From a virus (taxonomy: Duplodnaviria; Heunggongvirae; Uroviricota; Caudoviricetes), in IMG/VR virus record IMGVR_UViG_2563366805_000007: 33,977 bases of DNA; one strand, written 5' to 3'. The notes below the pieces were generated by a model. It was not told where the DNA came from and did not search any database. It saw nothing but the letters and a program-made list of their open reading frames with translations. Shown here piece after piece: positions 1-33,260 of the stretch; within the stretch, counting starts at the first letter, position 1; each line of letters starts with the position of its first letter. The translations under genes were made by a program, and so were the position numbers.

Positions 1-948
1 ATGATTATGCAAAAAATATTACGTATCGACAGTAACGATAATCTCATTGTCGCGTTGAAAGACCTGCACGCTGGAGAATCGTTCTCGTGGGATGACGACA
101 ACATAACGTTAGTAACTGATGTTAAGGCTAAACATAAGTTTGCGACGCAAGATATTCCTCTGGATGGCATTGTTTCGATGTACGGTACGCCAGTTGGCAA
201 GGCCACGCGTCCCATCGTTAAGGGAGAAGCGATTACCGTTGATAATATTCGCCACTATGCAGCTCCTGTCACACTGGAGGATGTTGAACCCTACCACTGG
301 CAGGCACCGGATGTCTCTGAATGGAGCACCCGCACTTTTAAAGGTTATGTCCGTGACGATGGCAGAGTGGGTACTGCCAGTTACTGGTTAGTCTTTCCAT
401 TGGTATTTTGCGAGAACCGTAATGTCAGTACGTTAACCAATGCTTTGAATGATGCTTTGGGTTATACCAATAACTCACTGAAAAAGTTTGCTCTTAATCT
501 GACGTCCGGTAGCGATGAACTGATCGAAACCGCGAGAATGTTTCCGCATATTGAAGGTGTTCGCTGTATTACGGTCACCAGTGGTTGTGGTGGTGCAACT
601 TCAGACTGTGAAACTATGTGCGATGTATTAGCTGCTTATGCTGACCATCCGAATGTAATCGGTATGACGGTATTCAGTTTAGGATGTGAAAAAGCGCAGC
701 AGAAAATGTTTAAGGATGCGCTGGCGAGACGTAATCCTGAATTTGATAAACCTGCGCTCTACTTTCTCCAACAGGAGTGGGACAGCGAAGAGCGGATGAT
801 GCAGACCGCTTTACAGCAGACTTTCGAGGCAATGAAAGCGGTGAAGCCGACAGAAAGAGTAGAGGTCCCTCTTTCCTGTCTCAAAGTGGGTGCCGCGCGC
901 CAATCAAAACGCGACACATTGACAACTAACATTGGATCGCGTTTGTGA
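1..948 (+). CDS. UxaA/GarD-family (altronate/galactarate) dehydratase, N-terminal fragment disrupted by prophage insertion; host-derived part is 1..890, the frame then reads into the phage end to a stop at 946-948
   Basis: Translation shows the N-terminal SAF-like region and the GLGCE motif of the UxaA/GarD family. The protein ends ...PLSCLKVG, exactly where the C-terminal fragment at 33261 resumes with MKCGGSDG (compare E. coli UxaA ...LKFGLECGGSDG, from memory). Confidence 0.7.
   Translation: MIMQKILRIDSNDNLIVALKDLHAGESFSWDDDNITLVTDVKAKHKFATQDIPLDGIVSMYGTPVGKATRPIVKGEAITVDNIRHYAAPVTLEDVEPYHWQAPDVSEWSTRTFKGYVRDDGRVGTASYWLVFPLVFCENRNVSTLTNALNDALGYTNNSLKKFALNLTSGSDELIETARMFPHIEGVRCITVTSGCGGATSDCETMCDVLAAYADHPNVIGMTVFSLGCEKAQQKMFKDALARRNPEFDKPALYFLQQEWDSEERMMQTALQQTFEAMKAVKPTERVEVPLSCLKVGAARQSKRDTLTTNIGSRL
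886..890. repeat. Left copy of the 5-bp target-site duplication GTGGG
   Basis: GTGGG occurs immediately outside both prophage termini (886-890 and 33261-33265); removing the prophage plus one copy restores an in-frame dehydratase ORF. It fits the Mu target consensus N-Y-(G/C)-R-N. Confidence 0.6.
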
Positions 949-955
949 TCATGAT

Positions 956-5847: not shown

Positions 5848-6386
5848 TTCATCTCCGATGTTTTTTTGCCATCCCCGTCCATATGGAAATGCTCAAGAAC
5901 AGATTTACCGGCGACCTGAATATCATTTGAAAATACAGATGGGCCGTTAACTTTTAATAATTTTGTATTTATCGCAAACAATTCGCCGGCATCGTAATTA
6001 ACCGATTTCCCTTTAACGTCGATAAGACCACCTTTTTTCAGGGTGATATAAGACTGACCATCGCCGTGATATAACCTGACCTCTCCATCCTCCAGACCTT
6101 TTGGACGACAGCGCTTGTCTTCAACAGCGATTGCCACCAGACCTTCCCGGCGTCCCCCCACTGCCAGAATGAGTGCTTCTGAACCGACTGGCGGCACAGA
6201 CGTCAGGCCGTAGTTCTGGAAACGTTCAACATCATCATTGGTGGAATCCGCCAGAGACTGGATCTGGAGGTTCTGACGCCCGAGACTGTCTGTAACGATA
6301 CGAACAACGGCCCTGTCAACGAGCAATCGCAGCCGGCGTCCAATACCTTCAAGTGTGCGACCGATATTTGCCGGATTCAGTCCCAT
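5844..6386 (-). CDS. Baseplate assembly protein V / spike-like (Mu gp45-like)
   Basis: 180-aa protein directly downstream of the hub gene P. Confidence 0.65.
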   Translation of the reverse strand: MGLNPANIGRTLEGIGRRLRLLVDRAVVRIVTDSLGRQNLQIQSLADSTNDDVERFQNYGLTSVPPVGSEALILAVGGRREGLVAIAVEDKRCRPKGLEDGEVRLYHGDGQSYITLKKGGLIDVKGKSVNYDAGELFAINTKLLKVNGPSVFSNDIQVAGKSVLEHFHMDGDGKKTSEMK

Positions 6387-13840: not shown

Positions 13841-14382
13841 TGCAGAACCTCATTCCAGAAATCCCCGATGACGTGCAGCAGTTCCTGACTGTTCCCGGAG
13901 GACAGGCCGAGGAACTCACGCTGCGGGATGTTCAACATACGTTTATGCGCCCCCACGGTTTGCCATACCCCGTGTTTAAGCGCCCGTCCAAATGCCTGTG
14001 AGATGAGTCGCTTATGGGCTGACACAGACACCGAGCCGGAAAACCCCTCGTTGTGCGTCCGGCCATAATCAAGCGGCGTACCCACACGAACGACAGAGCC
14101 GCTGACCACATACTGGATACTGTCGAGCAGATCGCCGTTGCCCTGTAACAGGCTCTGGTTGCTGTGTCTGGTTTTCGCGTAGCTGTCAGACCAGTCCTGC
14201 CATTTCTCGCCGGCAGGACTGGATTTTTCGCTGGAGATGCGCCGGCGGGTCTGTGACTCCACCACAGCGCCAATGCTCTCCAGTAGCTCCTGTTGCAGCG
14301 ACTGGTCAGCCAGTCGCTCAATCGCACGGCGAATGTCCTGAAACTTCTGGTCTCCTCTGACCTCGACAGTAATTCCCATCAC
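13837..14382 (-). CDS. Phage virion morphogenesis protein (Mu G-family homologue)
   Basis: 181-aa ORF coupled to both neighbours; assigned by size and character to the Mu G virion-morphogenesis family. Unlike Mu it lies downstream of the capsid gene rather than between F and I. Confidence 0.65.
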   Translation of the reverse strand: MMGITVEVRGDQKFQDIRRAIERLADQSLQQELLESIGAVVESQTRRRISSEKSSPAGEKWQDWSDSYAKTRHSNQSLLQGNGDLLDSIQYVVSGSVVRVGTPLDYGRTHNEGFSGSVSVSAHKRLISQAFGRALKHGVWQTVGAHKRMLNIPQREFLGLSSGNSQELLHVIGDFWNEVLQ

Positions 14383-15412: not shown

Positions 15413-15495
15413 TTTTTAAACCTCATTCAGGTTGGGTTTAAAGGAGGGTTAACCCCTCCTTAATCCGGCATTACGTGATTTTTTACGTAATGACG

Positions 15496-16389
15496 TCATG
15501 CTTTGACGTAAGGTGAGACCAGCAGGTCAACATCCTTGTAATAGATGTTTGAACCACCACCATCAGCCGTAACCGCTTCAATCAGCGCCTTGGCCGCACC
15601 ACGGTTGTTCTTACCGACGACCAGCAATGTCGGATTCATGCCCAGAGGTTCGCCGTTAGAGTCCGTGATACCCATCATTGCGGAGACAGCGGCTTCATAG
15701 TTCGCTTTGTTCAGTGCTGCTTTTGACCCCACACAGGTCTGCCAGAAACCAAAGCCAACGTTGCTGCGGCCATCGGTCCCGTAGGCGAATTCGTTCTGAA
15801 GGAACACACGCTCACTGGTGAGATCATCAAGGGCGATGAAGTTAAACGGACGGCGCTCCTGGTAAATGATGGGCAGCAGCGCATGCGTTGCATCAATCAG
15901 GAACCACGGCTCACCCGTATCGGTCGCCGGGTCGCCCACAACGTTCGATTTGGTGGATGTACCAACAGGGTGATCAGTATCGAAGAAATACTGACCGTCC
16001 CAGCACAGCGTATCGAAGCCTTTGCACAGCAACTCAAACGACAGCTTGTCCGGGAAAATCGTGGTATCGCGGCCAAGCTGCTCAGCAATCACGGAATACT
16101 GACCAATCTGATCGTCCTCGATTTTTTCGCGCTTGACCTTGACCGAGTTTTCCCAGGTCTTGTTGGTAATGACATACCCGGCCTGAGCCAGTTCTTTCAG
16201 CTGACGCGCCCCGATCCATTCTTTGATGGTCGGGAAGTCTTCAACCCAGCCATAAGTGTTAGACGCGCCGGAACTGGGGATGACCGTGGCGATGGATCGA
16301 TACTGCGGATTGACCCGACCAACACCTTTGGTAAAGGCGGCGCTCAGTGCGGTGGTCAGGGCATGCAACACTTCTGCGGATACCTGCAT
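15496..16389 (-). CDS. Major capsid protein (Mu T-like)
   Basis: 297-aa protein following the protease/scaffold gene I, as in Mu. Confidence 0.85.
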   Translation of the reverse strand: MQVSAEVLHALTTALSAAFTKGVGRVNPQYRSIATVIPSSGASNTYGWVEDFPTIKEWIGARQLKELAQAGYVITNKTWENSVKVKREKIEDDQIGQYSVIAEQLGRDTTIFPDKLSFELLCKGFDTLCWDGQYFFDTDHPVGTSTKSNVVGDPATDTGEPWFLIDATHALLPIIYQERRPFNFIALDDLTSERVFLQNEFAYGTDGRSNVGFGFWQTCVGSKAALNKANYEAAVSAMMGITDSNGEPLGMNPTLLVVGKNNRGAAKALIEAVTADGGGSNIYYKDVDLLVSPYVKA

Positions 16390-16392
16390 GAA

Positions 16393-17349
16393 TTATTTCT
16401 CCTGCTTACGAACGGAAAGGAATTCTTCTTCGCTGATGCCCATATGGCGGCACATCGCGAGGTCTTCGTCAGAAAGCGAGGCATGACCTTCGGTGCCTTC
16501 TTTTTTGGTCGTCGTGGTCTTGCTGACAATGACCGGTGCCGCTTTCACGAATTCAGCAAACCGCTTTCGGCCCTCTTCAGAGCGGCAGGTGGCGAGATAC
16601 ATTTCTCGGTTGGCCGGTGCGACTTTCCCCGACTCAATGGCGCTGTCCACCAGTGCTTCTGATTCTTTGATGGCAATCTCATTGAGTTTGTTTTCAGCGC
16701 TTTCCGCACGGTTAAGTGCTAACTGGTGGGTCTCTACCGGAATGAACTTCGTCAGGTCAGGATTCTCAGCGCGGTTAAGCGCCACCTGCTCGGCGGTCTT
16801 AATCTGCTGAATGGCTTTTACTGCGTCGTCTGCTGTGGCAGTGGCCGCGAGGCCAAGCACTGTCACAATCTGGACAGGTACGGTCATCGTGTTTTCCTCA
16901 GAGTTGAGTGCGGGTAAATCAAGGTTGGGTTTGTTGGTCAGCGCGGCGCTGGACAGGCGGGTGACCTGACCGTCCGCAGTGAACCGAAAGGCCGGACTGT
17001 AATAGAGGTACTTCTTGCCGCGCAGCTGCGCCATGCCGTCATCAGTCCATTCAACGTGCGCCTCCACCACGCCATCACTGACGCGATAGCCGTCAATCCA
17101 GCCATAAGCCGGGGCTTCATCGCCTTTCGGGCCTTTCAGTTCGGTAGAGTGCTCGATATCAAACGGGAGCTTTGGATAAGCCATCGAGGCACGAATGATG
17201 GCTTCCGGATTGTTGTTCACCCACGAACGGCCATCACGCCCTGTAAAGGTTCCCGCCGGTATCATCGGCAGCCATTCCGGCAATGCATCATCGGTAAGGT
17301 CAGGAAGCTGAAAGCAGAGCGCCAGCAGTTCCGTATTGTTCGGGTTCAT
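16393..17349 (-). CDS. Head protease/scaffold protein (Mu I-like)
   Basis: 318-aa protein with an acidic coiled-coil C-terminal half, directly upstream of the major capsid gene. Confidence 0.8.
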   Translation of the reverse strand: MNPNNTELLALCFQLPDLTDDALPEWLPMIPAGTFTGRDGRSWVNNNPEAIIRASMAYPKLPFDIEHSTELKGPKGDEAPAYGWIDGYRVSDGVVEAHVEWTDDGMAQLRGKKYLYYSPAFRFTADGQVTRLSSAALTNKPNLDLPALNSEENTMTVPVQIVTVLGLAATATADDAVKAIQQIKTAEQVALNRAENPDLTKFIPVETHQLALNRAESAENKLNEIAIKESEALVDSAIESGKVAPANREMYLATCRSEEGRKRFAEFVKAAPVIVSKTTTTKKEGTEGHASLSDEDLAMCRHMGISEEEFLSVRKQEK

Positions 17350-17552
17350 GGTGTTGTCCGGTCACGTTGTTTACTTCCGGACAGTGTGGGGGGGAACGGG
17401 GATGCAGGTGGATTAACCGGCTTCACTGTAAACGCGGCATGAAACCGCGTTTAAAACACGTTTAAAAACGCTGTGGCGCGTTTAACGATTTTTTCACGTG
17501 CCGTCATGATGTAATAATCGTTAATGCCGCCACGCGCGTTGTGGGATGGTTT
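17350..17552 (-). promoter_or_regulatory. Central intergenic region: candidate late promoter for the head operon and candidate strong gyrase site
   Basis: Only gap over 150 bp in the morphogenetic region. Contains three copies of TTAAACGCG-like motifs, an inverted repeat AAACGCGG/CCGCGTTT and a G7 tract. Lies within about 400 bp of the prophage midpoint (about 17075). Confidence 0.4.
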
Positions 17553-18347
17553 TTATCTTTGTGGCGAATGACTGTCAAACGCGTCCTGTTTTCTGCGTAG
17601 CTGTTCATCCAGCTCGCGACTGCGGGAGATTCCGGGGTTGTACGCCCAGCCGGGATCAATCCCCTCCGGAATGGTCTCTTCTTCGCCGGTGCGTTTGTTA
17701 ACCCATCTGACCGTACGCACTTCAGGGGCTTCCGTGTTGATAGTGCCGTTGGCCTTCATCTGCTCATACTCATACCGGCTGATTTGCCGTGTACCGCATT
17801 TGCATCCCCAGCCGTTCGGCCCCATGTGTGTTCGCCAGAACGGATGATCCACCGGCAGGCAGACATCCTTCCAGCGCAGATGCTCCGCACGGTGCTCACG
17901 TGAGGGGCCGACGGTGTAGACAAGATAAGGCATTGCCCGTTGGGTCCGTTCAATACGCTGCCATTGTCCCGCCGCGCGGGCTGTCCGCATGTTGGTGTCG
18001 TAGATAACGCGCATCCGGCGGTCACTGCCGAGCTGGACAGTACGGGTTTCACCGGTCAGTGGATCATCCATCAGTTGCTGTCCCCACCATCCACGTTTGA
18101 CCAGCATAGGTTTAAGAACCTCGCGAAATTGCTCAAAGGTCTGGCCGCTCTCCAGTGCGTCCTCCACGAGCTGGCGAACGTCCGCCAGCAAATCAAGCTG
18201 CGTCATCTTTGCCACAGTAAAGCCGATGCTGTGTTCTTCCATCCAGACATCGCGGTAATCAAATCCCGGCTTCAGCTTTTTCGCCTTCAGCCAGGCCAGT
18301 GCTTCCTGGGGAATAATGCTGTATTTATCGCTGACCGGCTTAGCCAT
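17553..18347 (-). CDS. Head morphogenesis protein (Mu F-like)
   Basis: 264-aa ORF directly downstream of the portal gene with overlap. Confidence 0.75.
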   Translation of the reverse strand: MAKPVSDKYSIIPQEALAWLKAKKLKPGFDYRDVWMEEHSIGFTVAKMTQLDLLADVRQLVEDALESGQTFEQFREVLKPMLVKRGWWGQQLMDDPLTGETRTVQLGSDRRMRVIYDTNMRTARAAGQWQRIERTQRAMPYLVYTVGPSREHRAEHLRWKDVCLPVDHPFWRTHMGPNGWGCKCGTRQISRYEYEQMKANGTINTEAPEVRTVRWVNKRTGEEETIPEGIDPGWAYNPGISRSRELDEQLRRKQDAFDSHSPQR

Positions 18348-19908
18348 CGTTTACATCTCCCAGCGACCGGGCTTTAAAACAGAGCATCGCCAGCTGCGTC
18401 GCAAACTCATCCGCATCAAGTTCTTTCTGAAGCGCCGGCAGGCCAGCAAGAAAAGATTCAAAGCTGTCAGATTTCTTTGCCAGCTCAAGCACCGGACTGG
18501 TGAACGCATCGCCGGTACGCTGCCAGTCATTCATCGCTTCATCCACCATCATATCAAGAACGTCAGGCTGGCTGCGGTTAAGCGCAGTCTGCTCACGGTT
18601 CATGGCCGGTAGTGGGTTAGTCATTTGCGCCGTTGGTGTCAGAATTTTTGCGCCTTTCTCCGGTTCAGACAGCCCGAATTTGTCACGGATCTCTGACATC
18701 TGAACTTCCATCCCCCGGTCAATCAGCGGCGACAGTGCATCCACCAGAACCTTAAGATCTTCCGGTTTGCTGATGCGCAGAACGACGCGGGGGTAATGCT
18801 CCTGTGGTCCGTAATTCATATCCACATAGGGACGAACAAGGAATTCAGACAGCGTGTTGGATAACTGCCAGGCATCCCATTTGGCGATGTCCATACGCAC
18901 ACCATTGTGGACTTCCGCCTGAGCACGTGAACTGCCGTCATCCGTGGTCATGGTCTGCCCCAGTACGGCCTTACTAATCTGCGCGTCACACCATTCGGCC
19001 ATCTCTTTAAAGAGAGTGCCACCGCTGTTACGGCTCGCCGCTTCCTGCATCTCCAGTTTCATCGAGTCGGGGATTGCGCAGCCGGCATCTGATGCCAGTG
19101 ATGCAATCGCATCCAGCAATGTCTGGATTTGTTCCGGGCTGGCGTTGTTGCCGTATTTACCCACCACAATCGGGATGCCAAATTTTTCAGCAAACGCCCA
19201 CCAGTCCCGGACTGTGTAGGACTTGAGCATATACATGACGGCCACCAGACGCGCCAGACCGTTACGCAAGGGCAGACCGGATTTCAGGCGGGGCTTATGG
19301 ACGATAAATTTCCCCGGTGACAATGGCTCACCATCGATGGGGTTCCTGTCCGTCAGTAGTCTGAAATCACGCAGCGTTTCCCGGTCAGGTTTCAGAAAAC
19401 GTGGATCTACCCATTCATAATCGCGGGGTTTCCAGAGTGTGGTGCTGGTATTCCAGAGGATTTCGCAGACACCAACGCCTTTACCAAGCCCGTCCAGCAA
19501 ATCGAACAGCAGTTCGGGAACCTGCGGTTGCGCCATGAGGTTACGGATATCATCTGCGATTTCCACATCCCGCGGGGAATCGCTCCCGGCCTCCACTGAA
19601 GGTTCAATCCCGGAAACCGTCAGCTTGCGTGTACGTAAAACGCTGGCGTAGTGGAGGTCACGTTCCTCCAGTTCCTCCGCCATAATGAAGAAATCACGGG
19701 CATGACCATCGGCTGCATTACGTAAGATCCCCGCAAGCCTGCCGGGACTCAGCGTACTGGCAACGCTGATACCTGCCGAGGGGGAACGTACACTCATTAC
19801 CGCCGCTGCGGATTGCGTCTGCTTCAGCTCATCCTTGTTCACGGTGACAACTTCTCCCGTGGCAGGACTGAGCAGCCGGCGAACGGCTCCGGTTAGTTGT
19901 TTAAACAT
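18340..19908 (-). CDS. Portal protein (Mu H / gp29-like)
   Basis: 522-aa protein immediately downstream of the large terminase. Confidence 0.85.
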   Translation of the reverse strand: MFKQLTGAVRRLLSPATGEVVTVNKDELKQTQSAAAVMSVRSPSAGISVASTLSPGRLAGILRNAADGHARDFFIMAEELEERDLHYASVLRTRKLTVSGIEPSVEAGSDSPRDVEIADDIRNLMAQPQVPELLFDLLDGLGKGVGVCEILWNTSTTLWKPRDYEWVDPRFLKPDRETLRDFRLLTDRNPIDGEPLSPGKFIVHKPRLKSGLPLRNGLARLVAVMYMLKSYTVRDWWAFAEKFGIPIVVGKYGNNASPEQIQTLLDAIASLASDAGCAIPDSMKLEMQEAASRNSGGTLFKEMAEWCDAQISKAVLGQTMTTDDGSSRAQAEVHNGVRMDIAKWDAWQLSNTLSEFLVRPYVDMNYGPQEHYPRVVLRISKPEDLKVLVDALSPLIDRGMEVQMSEIRDKFGLSEPEKGAKILTPTAQMTNPLPAMNREQTALNRSQPDVLDMMVDEAMNDWQRTGDAFTSPVLELAKKSDSFESFLAGLPALQKELDADEFATQLAMLCFKARSLGDVNDG

Positions 19909-21491
19909 CAGAGTAATCCCCGCTGATTTTTAAGACCCCGTGTGATGCGGACCTGACGGTGTTCATTACGCTCATCGGGGCGGGAAGGTTTCTTTAACTT
20001 GTGGACTTCATAACGGCGGCAGTCCTCGCGACTGGCGAGGAAACCGAGAAAAATAGCGATAGCAGAGTCACCGTGACGCTTGCGGCCATCGGTGCCGGTA
20101 GTTCGTGCATCATCAATGCCCGGTACGCCGCGATAAAGCTGAATTGCGCCGAGGTCTGTGATCACATCTTCATGCTTTGGCAGTACCAGCTCATTGTCTT
20201 CGAATGCCGCACGGAACCGTGGCATGTTCTCCCGGTAGTATTTGACGGAAAGCTGCACCTGCTCAACTTCATCACCGTATTTTTCCGCCGCCTGTTCTGC
20301 CAGATACTGACCGTTACCCCGCGCATCGAGCTTGATGCCGTCACGGCGGGGAAGCCTGTCACAGATATAAAACAGCGCCTGCTCCTGCTGTTTAAATGGC
20401 ACATTGCTGAGTTCCACCAGGAACGGGACGTTGCGCGTCGTGTCATCGTTGACTGTCACCGGTGCAAACACGGTCAGGTCACCATTACGCGCAAAGTCCT
20501 CCCCCAGACAGTGGCGCAGGTTCTGCGGCAGCTTCTCCAGTTCGGGTAGTACGACCGTCTCCAGCCATTCCTGCATTTCCACACGGCGCAGTCCGTCCGG
20601 CATCGCGTTAAAATCAGCCGTACCGGTGAAGCGCAGGACAACGGTCGGACCTCTGGCCGCACGTTCGCGCAGGGAACGTGCGATATAGACGCCACCGCCG
20701 TTCTTCGGCTCGCAGTAGTATTCCTCGCGGGCATCTTCCTCTGTGGCCGTGTCGCTCAGCAGGTTAGCCAGCCATTCCGCTTCGGCCTCCACAGACCAGA
20801 CTTTTTTTGTAACCTGACAGATGCGCTGATACAGCCCCTCTGCAATGGCCGTTTCAATATCGACGTGATGGACAGAGTAGCGTTTTTTCCCGGCCCGGCT
20901 GTCGGTGATGATGGTGTTAAACAGGTTATCAATACCGTTGTGAGTGGAAATAAGGCGAACATTATTCCCCCACATTGTCAGCGCCAGCGCCGCCTTGAGT
21001 ACCGCTGCAAGGTCAGCCTGGAATGCGGCCTCATCAATGATGACGTTACCCTGCATACCACGCAGGTTCGACGGGTTAGACGACAGCGCCTTGATTTTGT
21101 AGCCACTGGCGAACTGGATGACATAGACCAGGATGTCTTTGTCTTCATCCTTCAGCACTTCTTCACCAATGCCAGACGCGGCGCGGTCATAGGCTTTCGC
21201 CCACATGGCACAGGCATCAATAAACTCACGGGCCATGTCTTTCGTTGTGCCGACGTAGAATGTGTCGCACCCACCGGCCTCCACCGACATTGAGCCGTTG
21301 AGGGCCGCGTCAGCGGCTTCCGCCCAGGTCAGACCGGTACGACGCGACTTCTCGGCAATCTTCAGTTGAGAGGAGTCGGCAATCCACCGCTTCTGGTAGG
21401 GAAGCAGTAGCTGGCTTTTGTCGAACTCGCCCGACAGGATAGCCGCAGCGGACTGACTGGTGAGTGTTCTGTCCGGCGTCATCGTCGTCAT
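19908..21491 (-). CDS. Terminase large subunit (Mu gp28-like)
   Basis: 527-aa protein of terminase-large-subunit size, preceded by a small-subunit-like gene and followed by the portal. Confidence 0.85.
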   Translation of the reverse strand: MTTMTPDRTLTSQSAAAILSGEFDKSQLLLPYQKRWIADSSQLKIAEKSRRTGLTWAEAADAALNGSMSVEAGGCDTFYVGTTKDMAREFIDACAMWAKAYDRAASGIGEEVLKDEDKDILVYVIQFASGYKIKALSSNPSNLRGMQGNVIIDEAAFQADLAAVLKAALALTMWGNNVRLISTHNGIDNLFNTIITDSRAGKKRYSVHHVDIETAIAEGLYQRICQVTKKVWSVEAEAEWLANLLSDTATEEDAREEYYCEPKNGGGVYIARSLRERAARGPTVVLRFTGTADFNAMPDGLRRVEMQEWLETVVLPELEKLPQNLRHCLGEDFARNGDLTVFAPVTVNDDTTRNVPFLVELSNVPFKQQEQALFYICDRLPRRDGIKLDARGNGQYLAEQAAEKYGDEVEQVQLSVKYYRENMPRFRAAFEDNELVLPKHEDVITDLGAIQLYRGVPGIDDARTTGTDGRKRHGDSAIAIFLGFLASREDCRRYEVHKLKKPSRPDERNEHRQVRITRGLKNQRGLL

Positions 21492-25370: not shown

Positions 25371-25397
25371 CGAAAAAAAAGCCGGATTAACCGGCTT
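25371..25397 (-). terminator. Rho-independent terminator downstream of the membrane-protein gene
   Basis: Minus-strand RNA: stem AAGCCGG, loop UUAAU, stem CCGGCUU, followed by U8. Confidence 0.6.
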
Positions 25398-25415
25398 CAT
25401 TGTATTGGCTATAAC

Positions 25416-25743: not shown

Positions 25744-26151
25744 TCACTCCATATTAAATGAGAGCTGCCTCTTACCTTGCTCTAACTTTCGCATTCTCCG
25801 GATTGCTTTATACACCGTTTTATAGGTAACACGGTAACGCTCAACCAACTCTGTGATGTTTCTGCCATTGAAATCACGCCAGATTTTCATATCACGAATC
25901 AATGACTCAAGAGTCTGGCCGCGTGGAAAATAAATCTGCATTCCACCAATCTGACAGCTAATCGCATAGACCAGCTCCAGAGAGATTCGTGGGTCAACAC
26001 CATGCTTTGTCAGTTCGCCACGCAACAGCGTATTCAGTTCTGTCAGCAGTGCAGGGAAACGCACAGTTTCCGCCGAACTGTCATCGTCCAGGTGCTCCAG
26101 AATGCTGTCATCCTGGATATCACCAAACAGGTCATTCTGCTTTTCGCTCAT
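25744..26151 (-). CDS. mor: Mor/C-family transcriptional activator (Mor-like by synteny)
   Basis: 135 aa; ...DLFGDIQDDSILEHLD...FPALLTELNTLLRGEL...IRDMKIWRDFNGRNITELVERYRVTYKTVYKAIRRMR matches the Mor/C family; overlaps the gemA stop as in Mu. Confidence 0.8.
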   Translation of the reverse strand: MSEKQNDLFGDIQDDSILEHLDDDSSAETVRFPALLTELNTLLRGELTKHGVDPRISLELVYAISCQIGGMQIYFPRGQTLESLIRDMKIWRDFNGRNITELVERYRVTYKTVYKAIRRMRKLEQGKRQLSFNME

Positions 26152-32963: not shown

Positions 32964-33260
32964 TTGCAAAAGTGCTCAATTGGCTGGCTTTACCTTCGCA
33001 CCTCCTGTGGGCATTTTAAGCTGAGTTTAAATCCCGTTAAACGCTTTGAAATTAACTGCTATACGATCCAAATCTATGTGACACTTAACTGGCTTCGCTA
33101 TCGAATGATCCAAAATTGACGATATGCCAGATTTTCCACAAGTCGAGTAGCTTAACGTTGTGCGAAGCCTCACAACTCAAGCCTTCCTCCCGTTAATTCC
33201 CATGAATTCCCGGTTATTCCCGGGTTCTCTGTTTGATCCATACATCACTGTCACTAGTCA

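Follow-up and report, generated by a model that had tools for sequence, protein, structure and literature searches.

The window, by which we mean the whole stretch of 33,977 bp that was analysed, contains a Mu-like Escherichia coli prophage on its minus strand, at 891-33260 (length ~32,370 bp). Both ends, 891 (5'-TG) and 33260 (CA-3'), were set by comparison with a second insertion, the ECONIH4 copy, which lies at a different site, and they place the prophage midpoint at ~17076. Among 5,426 complete E. coli genomes, five carry the prophage with an identity of at least 97%. For the copy in ECONIH4, the RefSeq annotation shows a gene order of the Mu type: repressor, Ner-like protein, transposase and MuB-like ATPase, then Gam and Mor, followed by endolysin, terminase, portal, F-like head morphogenesis protein, I-like protease, major head protein, tail genes and invertase. 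Identities to the Mu proteins (transposase 52%, Mor 63%, F 35%, I 25-28%) indicate that the prophage is a distant relative of Mu. The ECONIH4 copy (locus L001, 2657-5034 and both flanks) sits inside a tail gene of a lambdoid prophage and carries an IS66 element within its tail-fibre region.

Between the F-like gene (stop codon TAA, 17555-17553) and the I-like gene (start codon ATG, 17349-17347), both on the minus strand, lies an intergenic gap of 203 bp, the largest of the late region, in which the remaining gaps measure 83-96 bp. Its centre (17451) is 375 bp from the prophage midpoint by the mapped ends. The sequence-only reading, which had singled out this gap as the one sizeable non-coding stretch among the structural genes, within about 400 bp of the midpoint, was correct in both respects. 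An Rfam scan of 17200-17700 (E ≤ 1) identified no RNA family, and a promoter and terminator scan of the coding (minus) strand identified no sigma-70 promoter and no terminator. The sequence TTAAACGCG has two exact copies in the whole window, both within the gap (17446-17454 and 17477-17485, minus strand), and three one-mismatch copies in or near it, at 17457-17465 (minus), 17428-17436 (plus) and 17575-17583 (plus, within the F coding sequence). Allowing up to one mismatch, the window holds 19 matches vs 7.4 expected, five of them inside 156 bp. The three repeats that had been claimed for the gap correspond to the two exact copies and one direct copy with a single mismatch, with start-to-start spacings of 20 and 11 nt; they are listed as tracts 1 to 3 together with the other features in Table 1.

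Table 1. Features of the F-I gap, related sites elsewhere in the prophage, and relative position of the predicted cleavage centre in six genomes.
Feature	Position in window	Strand	Basis or remark
Whole F-I intergenic gap	17350..17552	-	203 bp; open reading frame list, translations, RefSeq annotation of identical prophage
SGS-like element (predicted gyrase core and right arm)	17437..17527	-	Homologous to Mu 17885-17937; nhmmer, ungapped alignment of 20 relatives
Predicted 4-bp gyrase cleavage stagger GACG	17502..17505	-	Inferred from register with Mu stagger
Imperfect palindrome	17473..17533	.	Arms 17473-17496 and 17510-17533, 79% complementary, centred 17503.0
Tract 1, TTAAACGCG within AAAAAATCGTTAAACGCGCCAC	17477..17485	-	Counterpart Mu TTTTTTAAAACGCGCCAC
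Tract 2, TTAAACGTG	17457..17465	-	Counterpart Mu TTTTTAAACCGG
Tract 3, TTAAACGCG	17446..17454	-	11 nt past tract 2; counterpart Mu TATTTAACGG
Hairpin AAACGCGG-TTTCATG-CCGCGTTT	17430..17452	-	Arms 17452-17445 / 17437-17430; tract 3 and A/T-rich stretch upstream of Mor box
Mor box AGTGAAGCCGGTTAAT	17412..17427	-	Predicted activator site of I late promoter; 15/16 match to Mu Pm Mor site AGTAAAGCCGGTTAAT
C7 run (G7 on plus) in promoter spacer	17388..17394	-	Not conserved
Candidate -10 hexamer CACACT	17383..17388	-	23 nt past Mor box; direct sequence reading
Inverted repeat TGTCCGG...CCGGACA	17355..17383	-	Just upstream of I start codon
Second Mor box AATGAAGCCGGTTAAT (25401-25386)	25373..25401	-	Upstream of endolysin gene; AATGA-AGCCGG-TTAAT
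Only Mor/C-family activator gene of prophage	25744..26151	-	63% identical to Mu Mor, 35% to Mu C
Prophage right end, transposase end sites with AAACGCG	891..951	+	R1-like site from 891, inverted copy ~935-951
Predicted centre, window prophage			48.7% of genome length
Predicted centre, Mu			48.7% of genome length
Predicted centre, Klebsiella Kp4866-3			48.0% of genome length
Predicted centre, Shewanella MuM16-2			50.7% of genome length
Predicted centre, Vibrio martha 12B12			50.2% of genome length
Predicted centre, Vibrio 1.028.O			50.4% of genome length

In the Mu record, the equivalent 196-bp gap between G and I contains the gyrase cut of the strong gyrase site (SGS) at 17879/80, a predicted terminator and the annotated late promoter PI. 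Aligned against Mu 17897-17932, the gap of the window matched at 28 of 36 positions without a gap (Mu TTTTTTAAAACGCGCCACGGGATTTTTAAACCGGTATTTAACGG vs window minus strand AAATCGTTAAACGCGCCACAGCGTTTTTAAACGTGTTTTAAACGCGG), with a score of 37 vs 16.7 ± 2.2 for dinucleotide shuffles (z ~9). The matched Mu segment lies just right of the cut and thus represents the SGS right arm. This arm is the essential part of the Mu site (PMC13284261, PMC10052514); without it, the site loses its special activity. The arm presents the T-segment and is wrapped around a GyrA C-terminal domain (PMC13284261, PMC10052514, PMC6379681). A profile HMM (nhmmer) built from relatives, leaving out Mu, its close clade and the clade of the window, recovered a single significant site in each genome: in Mu next to the annotated cut, at 17885-17937 (E = 7e-6, with the next best at 0.15), and in the window at 17527-17437 (E = 1e-16). 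The motif comparison with the Mu SGS, which had been proposed as a check of the gyrase-site idea, therefore gave an ungapped alignment as well as reciprocal single HMM sites, and it indicates that the direct tracts are relatives of the Mu SGS right arm. Since the proteins flanking the element are merely 25-35% identical to their Mu counterparts, the DNA element is better conserved than the neighbouring genes.

Relatives were gathered via the I protease, yielding 15 viral contigs and 19 loci from species-representative genomes with 25-90% protein identity. The triple element was found upstream of I in almost all of them. Twenty relatives align over ~95 columns without a single gap, including loci from Brenneria, Raoultella, Klebsiella, Pluralibacter, Kluyvera, Marinomonas, Vibrio, Citrobacter and Apirhabdus, and the family consensus reads roughly aaaWWTyTTAAACGCGccACrGCGtTTTTAAACGnGGTTTAAACGnGGTTcc. 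The profile HMM detected the element in the Klebsiella phage Kp4866-3 (E = 9e-26) and in the F-I gap of isolated Shewanella and Vibrio phages (E = 3e-13 and 1e-9). A strict pattern of 23 positions covering the three tracts matched 117 viral contig stretches; 80 of these were fetched, and 63 of the 80 encode an I-protease homologue (23-98% identity) just downstream, with its start mostly 89-172 nt away. The sequence-only reading had tied its proposal to conservation of the motifs among related prophages, and there they are clearly kept. By these alignments, the tracts are among the best-conserved non-coding bases of the Mu-like phage group. The ungapped family alignment, built from over 100 contigs whose flanking proteins share as little as ~25% identity, can serve as a set of naturally occurring mutants of the SGS right arm. 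The positions held fixed are visible in it, and this could help to explain the much greater strength of the Mu SGS compared with ordinary gyrase sites.

In DMS3, a Pseudomonas siphophage of the D3112 type (locus L242, 456-799; record positions 18819-19162), the gap upstream of I contains G+C-rich repeats with a period of 11 bp (CCCCGTTAGA), and the match to the SGS model is not significant. The location corresponds to the insertion-free central segment proposed as SGS in phage Ab30 (PMC5977238).

Because the right arm aligns without gaps, the 4-bp stagger of Mu can be transferred to window positions 17505-17502; in Mu it is AATC at 17876-17879, as derived from the 133-bp fragment that the supplement of PMC6379681 gives centred on the cut. 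The corresponding bases are GATG in most enteric relatives and AATC or AATG in the Mu-proximal clade. The offsets of the A/T tracts from the predicted centre are about +16.5, +38.5 and +50, which fits the A/T patches of the published gyrase consensus at +19, +38.5 and +49.5 (PMC6379681). Between 17436 and 17484 the A/T content is periodic with 10.5-11 bp (z = 3.45, top 0.3% of the window), and the right arm of Mu gave a similar value (z = 3.26), both within the top 0.2-0.3% of their own genome. A crude match score to the published 133-bp consensus placed the window site in the top 0.85% of the window, but the Mu control failed: as the Mu SGS itself reached only the top 0.9% of the Mu genome, this score lacks power and the rank of the window site is uninformative. 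The imperfect palindrome around the predicted centre was given little weight and is only suggestive, since its level was reached by 27 of 1000 shuffles, making it marginal vs chance, and no equivalent dyad was found in Mu; a dyad profile computed over the whole family peaks just as high at another place. In enteric relatives (L019-L026, L033) the sequence GTGrTACGATG is conserved at the predicted cleavage centre, which can also be read as an extended -10 element (TGnTACGAT).

Counted from the left end, the predicted centre (17503) falls at 48.7% of the prophage (891-33260), the same relative position as in Mu, and the values for four further phages range from 48.0 to 50.7% (Table 1). This central position fits an SGS but is no independent proof of it, as conserved gene order alone could produce it. 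According to papers that cite Oram and Pato (2004, J Bacteriol 186:4575), the candidate SGSs of other Mu-like prophages are likewise central and intergenic and were proposed from position and similarity to Mu.

The element shares further properties with the Mu SGS: its orientation, its location ahead of the I protease gene with a late promoter for I coming next, and, in its homologous right arm, three A/T tracts that have the spacings of the Mu tracts (21 and 11-12 nt) and a similar periodicity. It differs from the Mu site in the predicted cut core (GACG vs AATC), in its upstream neighbour, which is F here and G in Mu (the G homologue of the window is located at 13867-14379), and in the distance from the right arm to the activator box, ~10 bp here vs roughly 40 bp in Mu.

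The homology of the tracts to the experimentally defined right arm of Mu, and a geometry that is fixed even in distant Mu-like phages, support the candidate strong gyrase site that the sequence-only reading had placed here, and from them we infer gyrase binding and cleavage as well as a role in replication. DNA gyrase would cleave around 17505-17502, that is, at 17503 ± a few bp, and the 50-65 bp downstream would wrap a GyrA C-terminal domain, with the three TTAAAC tracts supplying phased, bendable A/T signals for this wrap. A strong, processive gyrase site at the prophage centre would sit at the tip of a supercoiled loop, as proposed for Mu, and this loop would bring both prophage ends together for replicative transposition. 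The site of E. coli O157:H7 Sakai is the sole other Mu-like prophage site able to replace the Mu SGS (PMC10052514); thus, homology predicts the kind of element and does not guarantee equal strength.

The degree of conservation raises another possibility, namely that the TTAAAC tracts are recognised base-specifically by a different protein, either phage-encoded or a host architectural factor, forming a nucleoprotein site in place of, or in addition to, a gyrase wrap. From Vibrio to E. coli hosts, TTTAAAC is kept, frequently with a G after it, whereas the intervening sequences drift. Phased G/C content is the main determinant of the published gyrase motif, which is degenerate (PMC6379681), so tight conservation of TTTAAAC is not obviously required by it and exceeds what generic bendability seems to need. 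We nevertheless regard recognition by another protein as unlikely, because the homologous Mu segment is the arm that was experimentally found to be wrapped by gyrase and is needed for SGS activity with purified gyrase alone, because the literature cited here mentions no additional SGS-binding factor, and because the tract offsets fit the consensus patches. A related idea, speculative and rather doubtful, is that the SGS right arm carries a base-specific signature beyond bendable DNA, consisting of three TTTAAAC tracts at fixed offsets from the cleavage centre in Mu-like myophages of Enterobacterales, Vibrionales and Alteromonadales. If true, the GyrA C-terminal domain or another partner would be expected to recognise the sequence specifically. 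In this prophage the wrapped arm would end ~10 bp short of the Mor box, so that a mechanical coupling between gyrase occupancy and activation of the late promoter could exist.

Downstream of the gyrase-site homolog, the remaining part of the gap resembles the Mu middle promoter Pm. The sequence ACAGTGAAGCCGGTTAATCC, located downstream of the tracts, has a second copy ahead of the endolysin gene that agrees at 19 of 20 positions, and it also matches Mu Pm (ACAGTAAAGCCGGTTAATCCGGCTTTTTTT). The Mor box reads AGTGA-AGCCGG-TTAAT in the window (17427-17412) vs AGTAA-AGCCGG-TTAAT in Mu. In Mu Pm, the Mor-binding dyad extends over 16 bp from -51 to -36, with 5-bp inverted repeats flanking a G/C-rich hexamer and its centre at -43.5 (PMC4287176, PMC4390567). 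With zero or one mismatch, the box occurs in the window only at 17427-17412 and 25401-25386; all other matches have at least three mismatches. The candidate -10 hexamer implies a transcription start (+1) at ~17376, which places the centre of the Mor box at -43.5. Relatives keep the Mor box, the spacing and a CAyrCT hexamer, and the spacer sequence drifts. Mu Pm has TATCCT 22 nt past its Mor box. The predicted promoter of the window resembles it in the 16-bp site AGTrAAGCCGGTTAAT, in a candidate weak -10 element 22-23 nt downstream and in the absence of a -35 hexamer, and it has a cognate activator with 63% identity to Mor. At the I gene, the Mor box of the window comes without the downstream half of the terminator-shaped hairpin that is found in Mu Pm and several relatives.

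These similarities agree with the late promoter suggested by the sequence-only reading and specify its probable type, a Mor box with 15 of 16 bases of the Mu Pm site placed 23 nt upstream of a -10-like hexamer. A single Mor-type activator would bind AGTGAAGCCGGTTAAT, centred at -43.5, and recruit RNA polymerase to the proposed -10 element CACACT, which is weak; module 2 (17427-17376) would then act as the late promoter of the operon headed by the I head gene, with transcription predicted to start at ~17376. With the C-dependent PI of Mu it shares the position upstream of I, a similar -10 region (CAAACTG in Mu vs CACACTG in the window) and an inverted repeat right before the start codon; it differs in its activator box, which is of the Mor type here and of the C type in Mu PI. 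The arms of this inverted repeat (TGTCCGG...CCGGACA) are nearly invariant in 10 relatives and its loop varies, and at the equivalent place Mu has CTGCTCA...TGAGCAG (18026-18049). A covariation test on the repeat gave no support for an RNA structure, as the arms are too invariant. If transcription starts at ~17376, the repeat straddles the start site and may serve as an operator at the level of DNA, or its effect may be confined to read-through transcripts. Another sequence resembling the Mor box, with three mismatches (AGGGAAATCGGTTAAT, 5997-6012, minus strand), lies inside a baseplate gene, and ~24 nt further on comes an A/T-rich, -10-like stretch. Either the match is due to chance, or this is a weak internal late promoter similar to Mu PP.

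Alternatively, the repeats might themselves be parts of the predicted promoter, such as an upstream activator site, UP-element or terminator serving the I operon, and be unrelated to DNA topology. The Mor box follows them at a distance of 20-75 bp, Mor and C were reported to act as tetramers on extended upstream DNA (bioRxiv 10.1101/2025.05.02.651988), tract 3 can form a stable hairpin with the stretch upstream of the Mor box, and the Mu record predicts a terminator at the equivalent place. However, the Mor promoter of the endolysin gene has no tracts, and Mu Pm mutations upstream of -57 had no effect (PMC4390567). The linkers vary as well: among the relatives, the distance from the end of the element to the start of I ranges from ~100 to 254 nt, with each module internally ungapped, and the third tract is separated from the activator box by ~20 nt in the window and ~45 nt in the Klebsiella group. 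These three observations argue that the tracts are not part of the promoter. Together with a hairpin that is not conserved and the missing terminator call on the minus strand, they make a purely transcriptional role of the repeats quite unlikely.

The hairpin of the sequence-only reading is present and stable (arms AAACGCGG and CCGCGTTT, -14.7 kcal/mol, z = -5 vs shuffles), but its pairing is lost in a clade with 82% identity (L011-L013) and partly broken in the window's own clade (L005, L010, L014, L017). As an intrinsic terminator it was rejected: it has no U-tail, being followed only by TTTACAGT, and there was no terminator call on this strand. Similarly, the G7 homopolymer pointed out in the same reading exists at 17388-17394 (plus strand) but falls into the variable promoter spacer and is not conserved.

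The proposed promoter has a matching regulator. The product of the activator gene (25744-26151) is identical to Mor in the recognition-helix stretch, and tblastn searches of the window with the Mor and C proteins matched this single locus, with no second Mor/C-family gene. At the endolysin gene, the Mor box forms part of a terminator-shaped hairpin followed by T8, as in Mu Pm. Whereas Mu uses C-dependent promoters (PI, Plys), head and lysis genes follow Mor-type boxes in the window, and the prophage appears to drive both gene sets directly from these predicted promoters. With C missing from the prophage, its cascade appears to be two-tiered, compared with three tiers in Mu; a Mu relative without C protein would represent a simpler, two-tier version of the Mu transcription cascade.

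Altogether, we consider it likely that the gap consists of two modules sharing ancestry with Mu, an SGS-like element in its upstream part and a Mor-type promoter in its downstream part. Sequence homology, fixed geometry, deep conservation, central position and the presence of the activator gene support this interpretation. The gap is a further example of a known arrangement, a Mu-type central SGS combined with a Mor-type promoter, and no new kind of element; for the present prophage, the one large gap of the structural region is thereby explained.

The sequence AAACGCG, which is contained in the central repeats, also occurs near the right end of the prophage, at 907-913 (plus) and 938-944 (minus). 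The inverted pair described there in the sequence-only reading is thus real, yet the DNA-binding specificity that it was thought to share with the centre is not supported. The copies at the end belong to transposase sites (TGCCGCGCGCCAATCAAAACGCGACAC, homologous to Mu R1 TGAAGCGGCGCACGAAAAACGCGAAAG), and Kp4866-3 has end repeats of a different type (ATTTGATAC), with no AAACGCG at its ends, and keeps the central element. That the central AAACGCG copies are transposase-binding sites of the kind found at the prophage ends, and the centre a third synapsis site, is highly improbable in spite of their presence in both places and of a coincidence in Mu at 122, 17898 and 36695, since the match is merely 7 bp long, the central copies carry neither the ATCA flank nor the CGA(A/C)A core seen in the end sites, relatives conserve TTAAAC rather than CGCG, and Kp4866-3 keeps the central element (E = 9e-26) although its ends are different. 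Central repeats as transposase end-binding sites were accordingly rejected, with the full end-site consensus unmatched and no co-variation with the Kp4866-3 end repeats. A scan for the right ends of relatives via the Gin-like invertase gave 80 invertase loci, all unrelated, and the contigs sought were not among them.

Several minor observations concern other parts of these genomes. In Kp4866-3 (L120; 1-160, last 100 bases and 15870-15895), the end repeats cATTTGATACtg resemble the phage's own predicted SGS core GGCATTTGTGATACGATG. Weak, non-significant matches to the right-arm model (E = 0.35-2) were located ~210-240 bp from the left end in both the window (33023-33049, reading GCGTTTAACGGGATTTAAAC) and Mu (205-225). 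The strongest A/T periodicity of 10.5-11 bp in a 49-nt scan was found, in both genomes, in the gap past the major head gene (window 15413-15495, Mu 20054-20104), which contains a G+C-rich hairpin between TTAAA-type tracts. The Mu segment 20054-20104 was also among the next-best, non-significant matches to the SGS models, ranking second with model A (E = 0.22) and third with model B (E = 0.29). Finally, the left end of the prophage carries three GGGAAT(A/T)A repeats (33183-33225), 10-11 bp apart and 36-78 bp from the left terminus, and comparable GGGA repeats were present at equal distance from the terminus in Mu and Kp4866-3.
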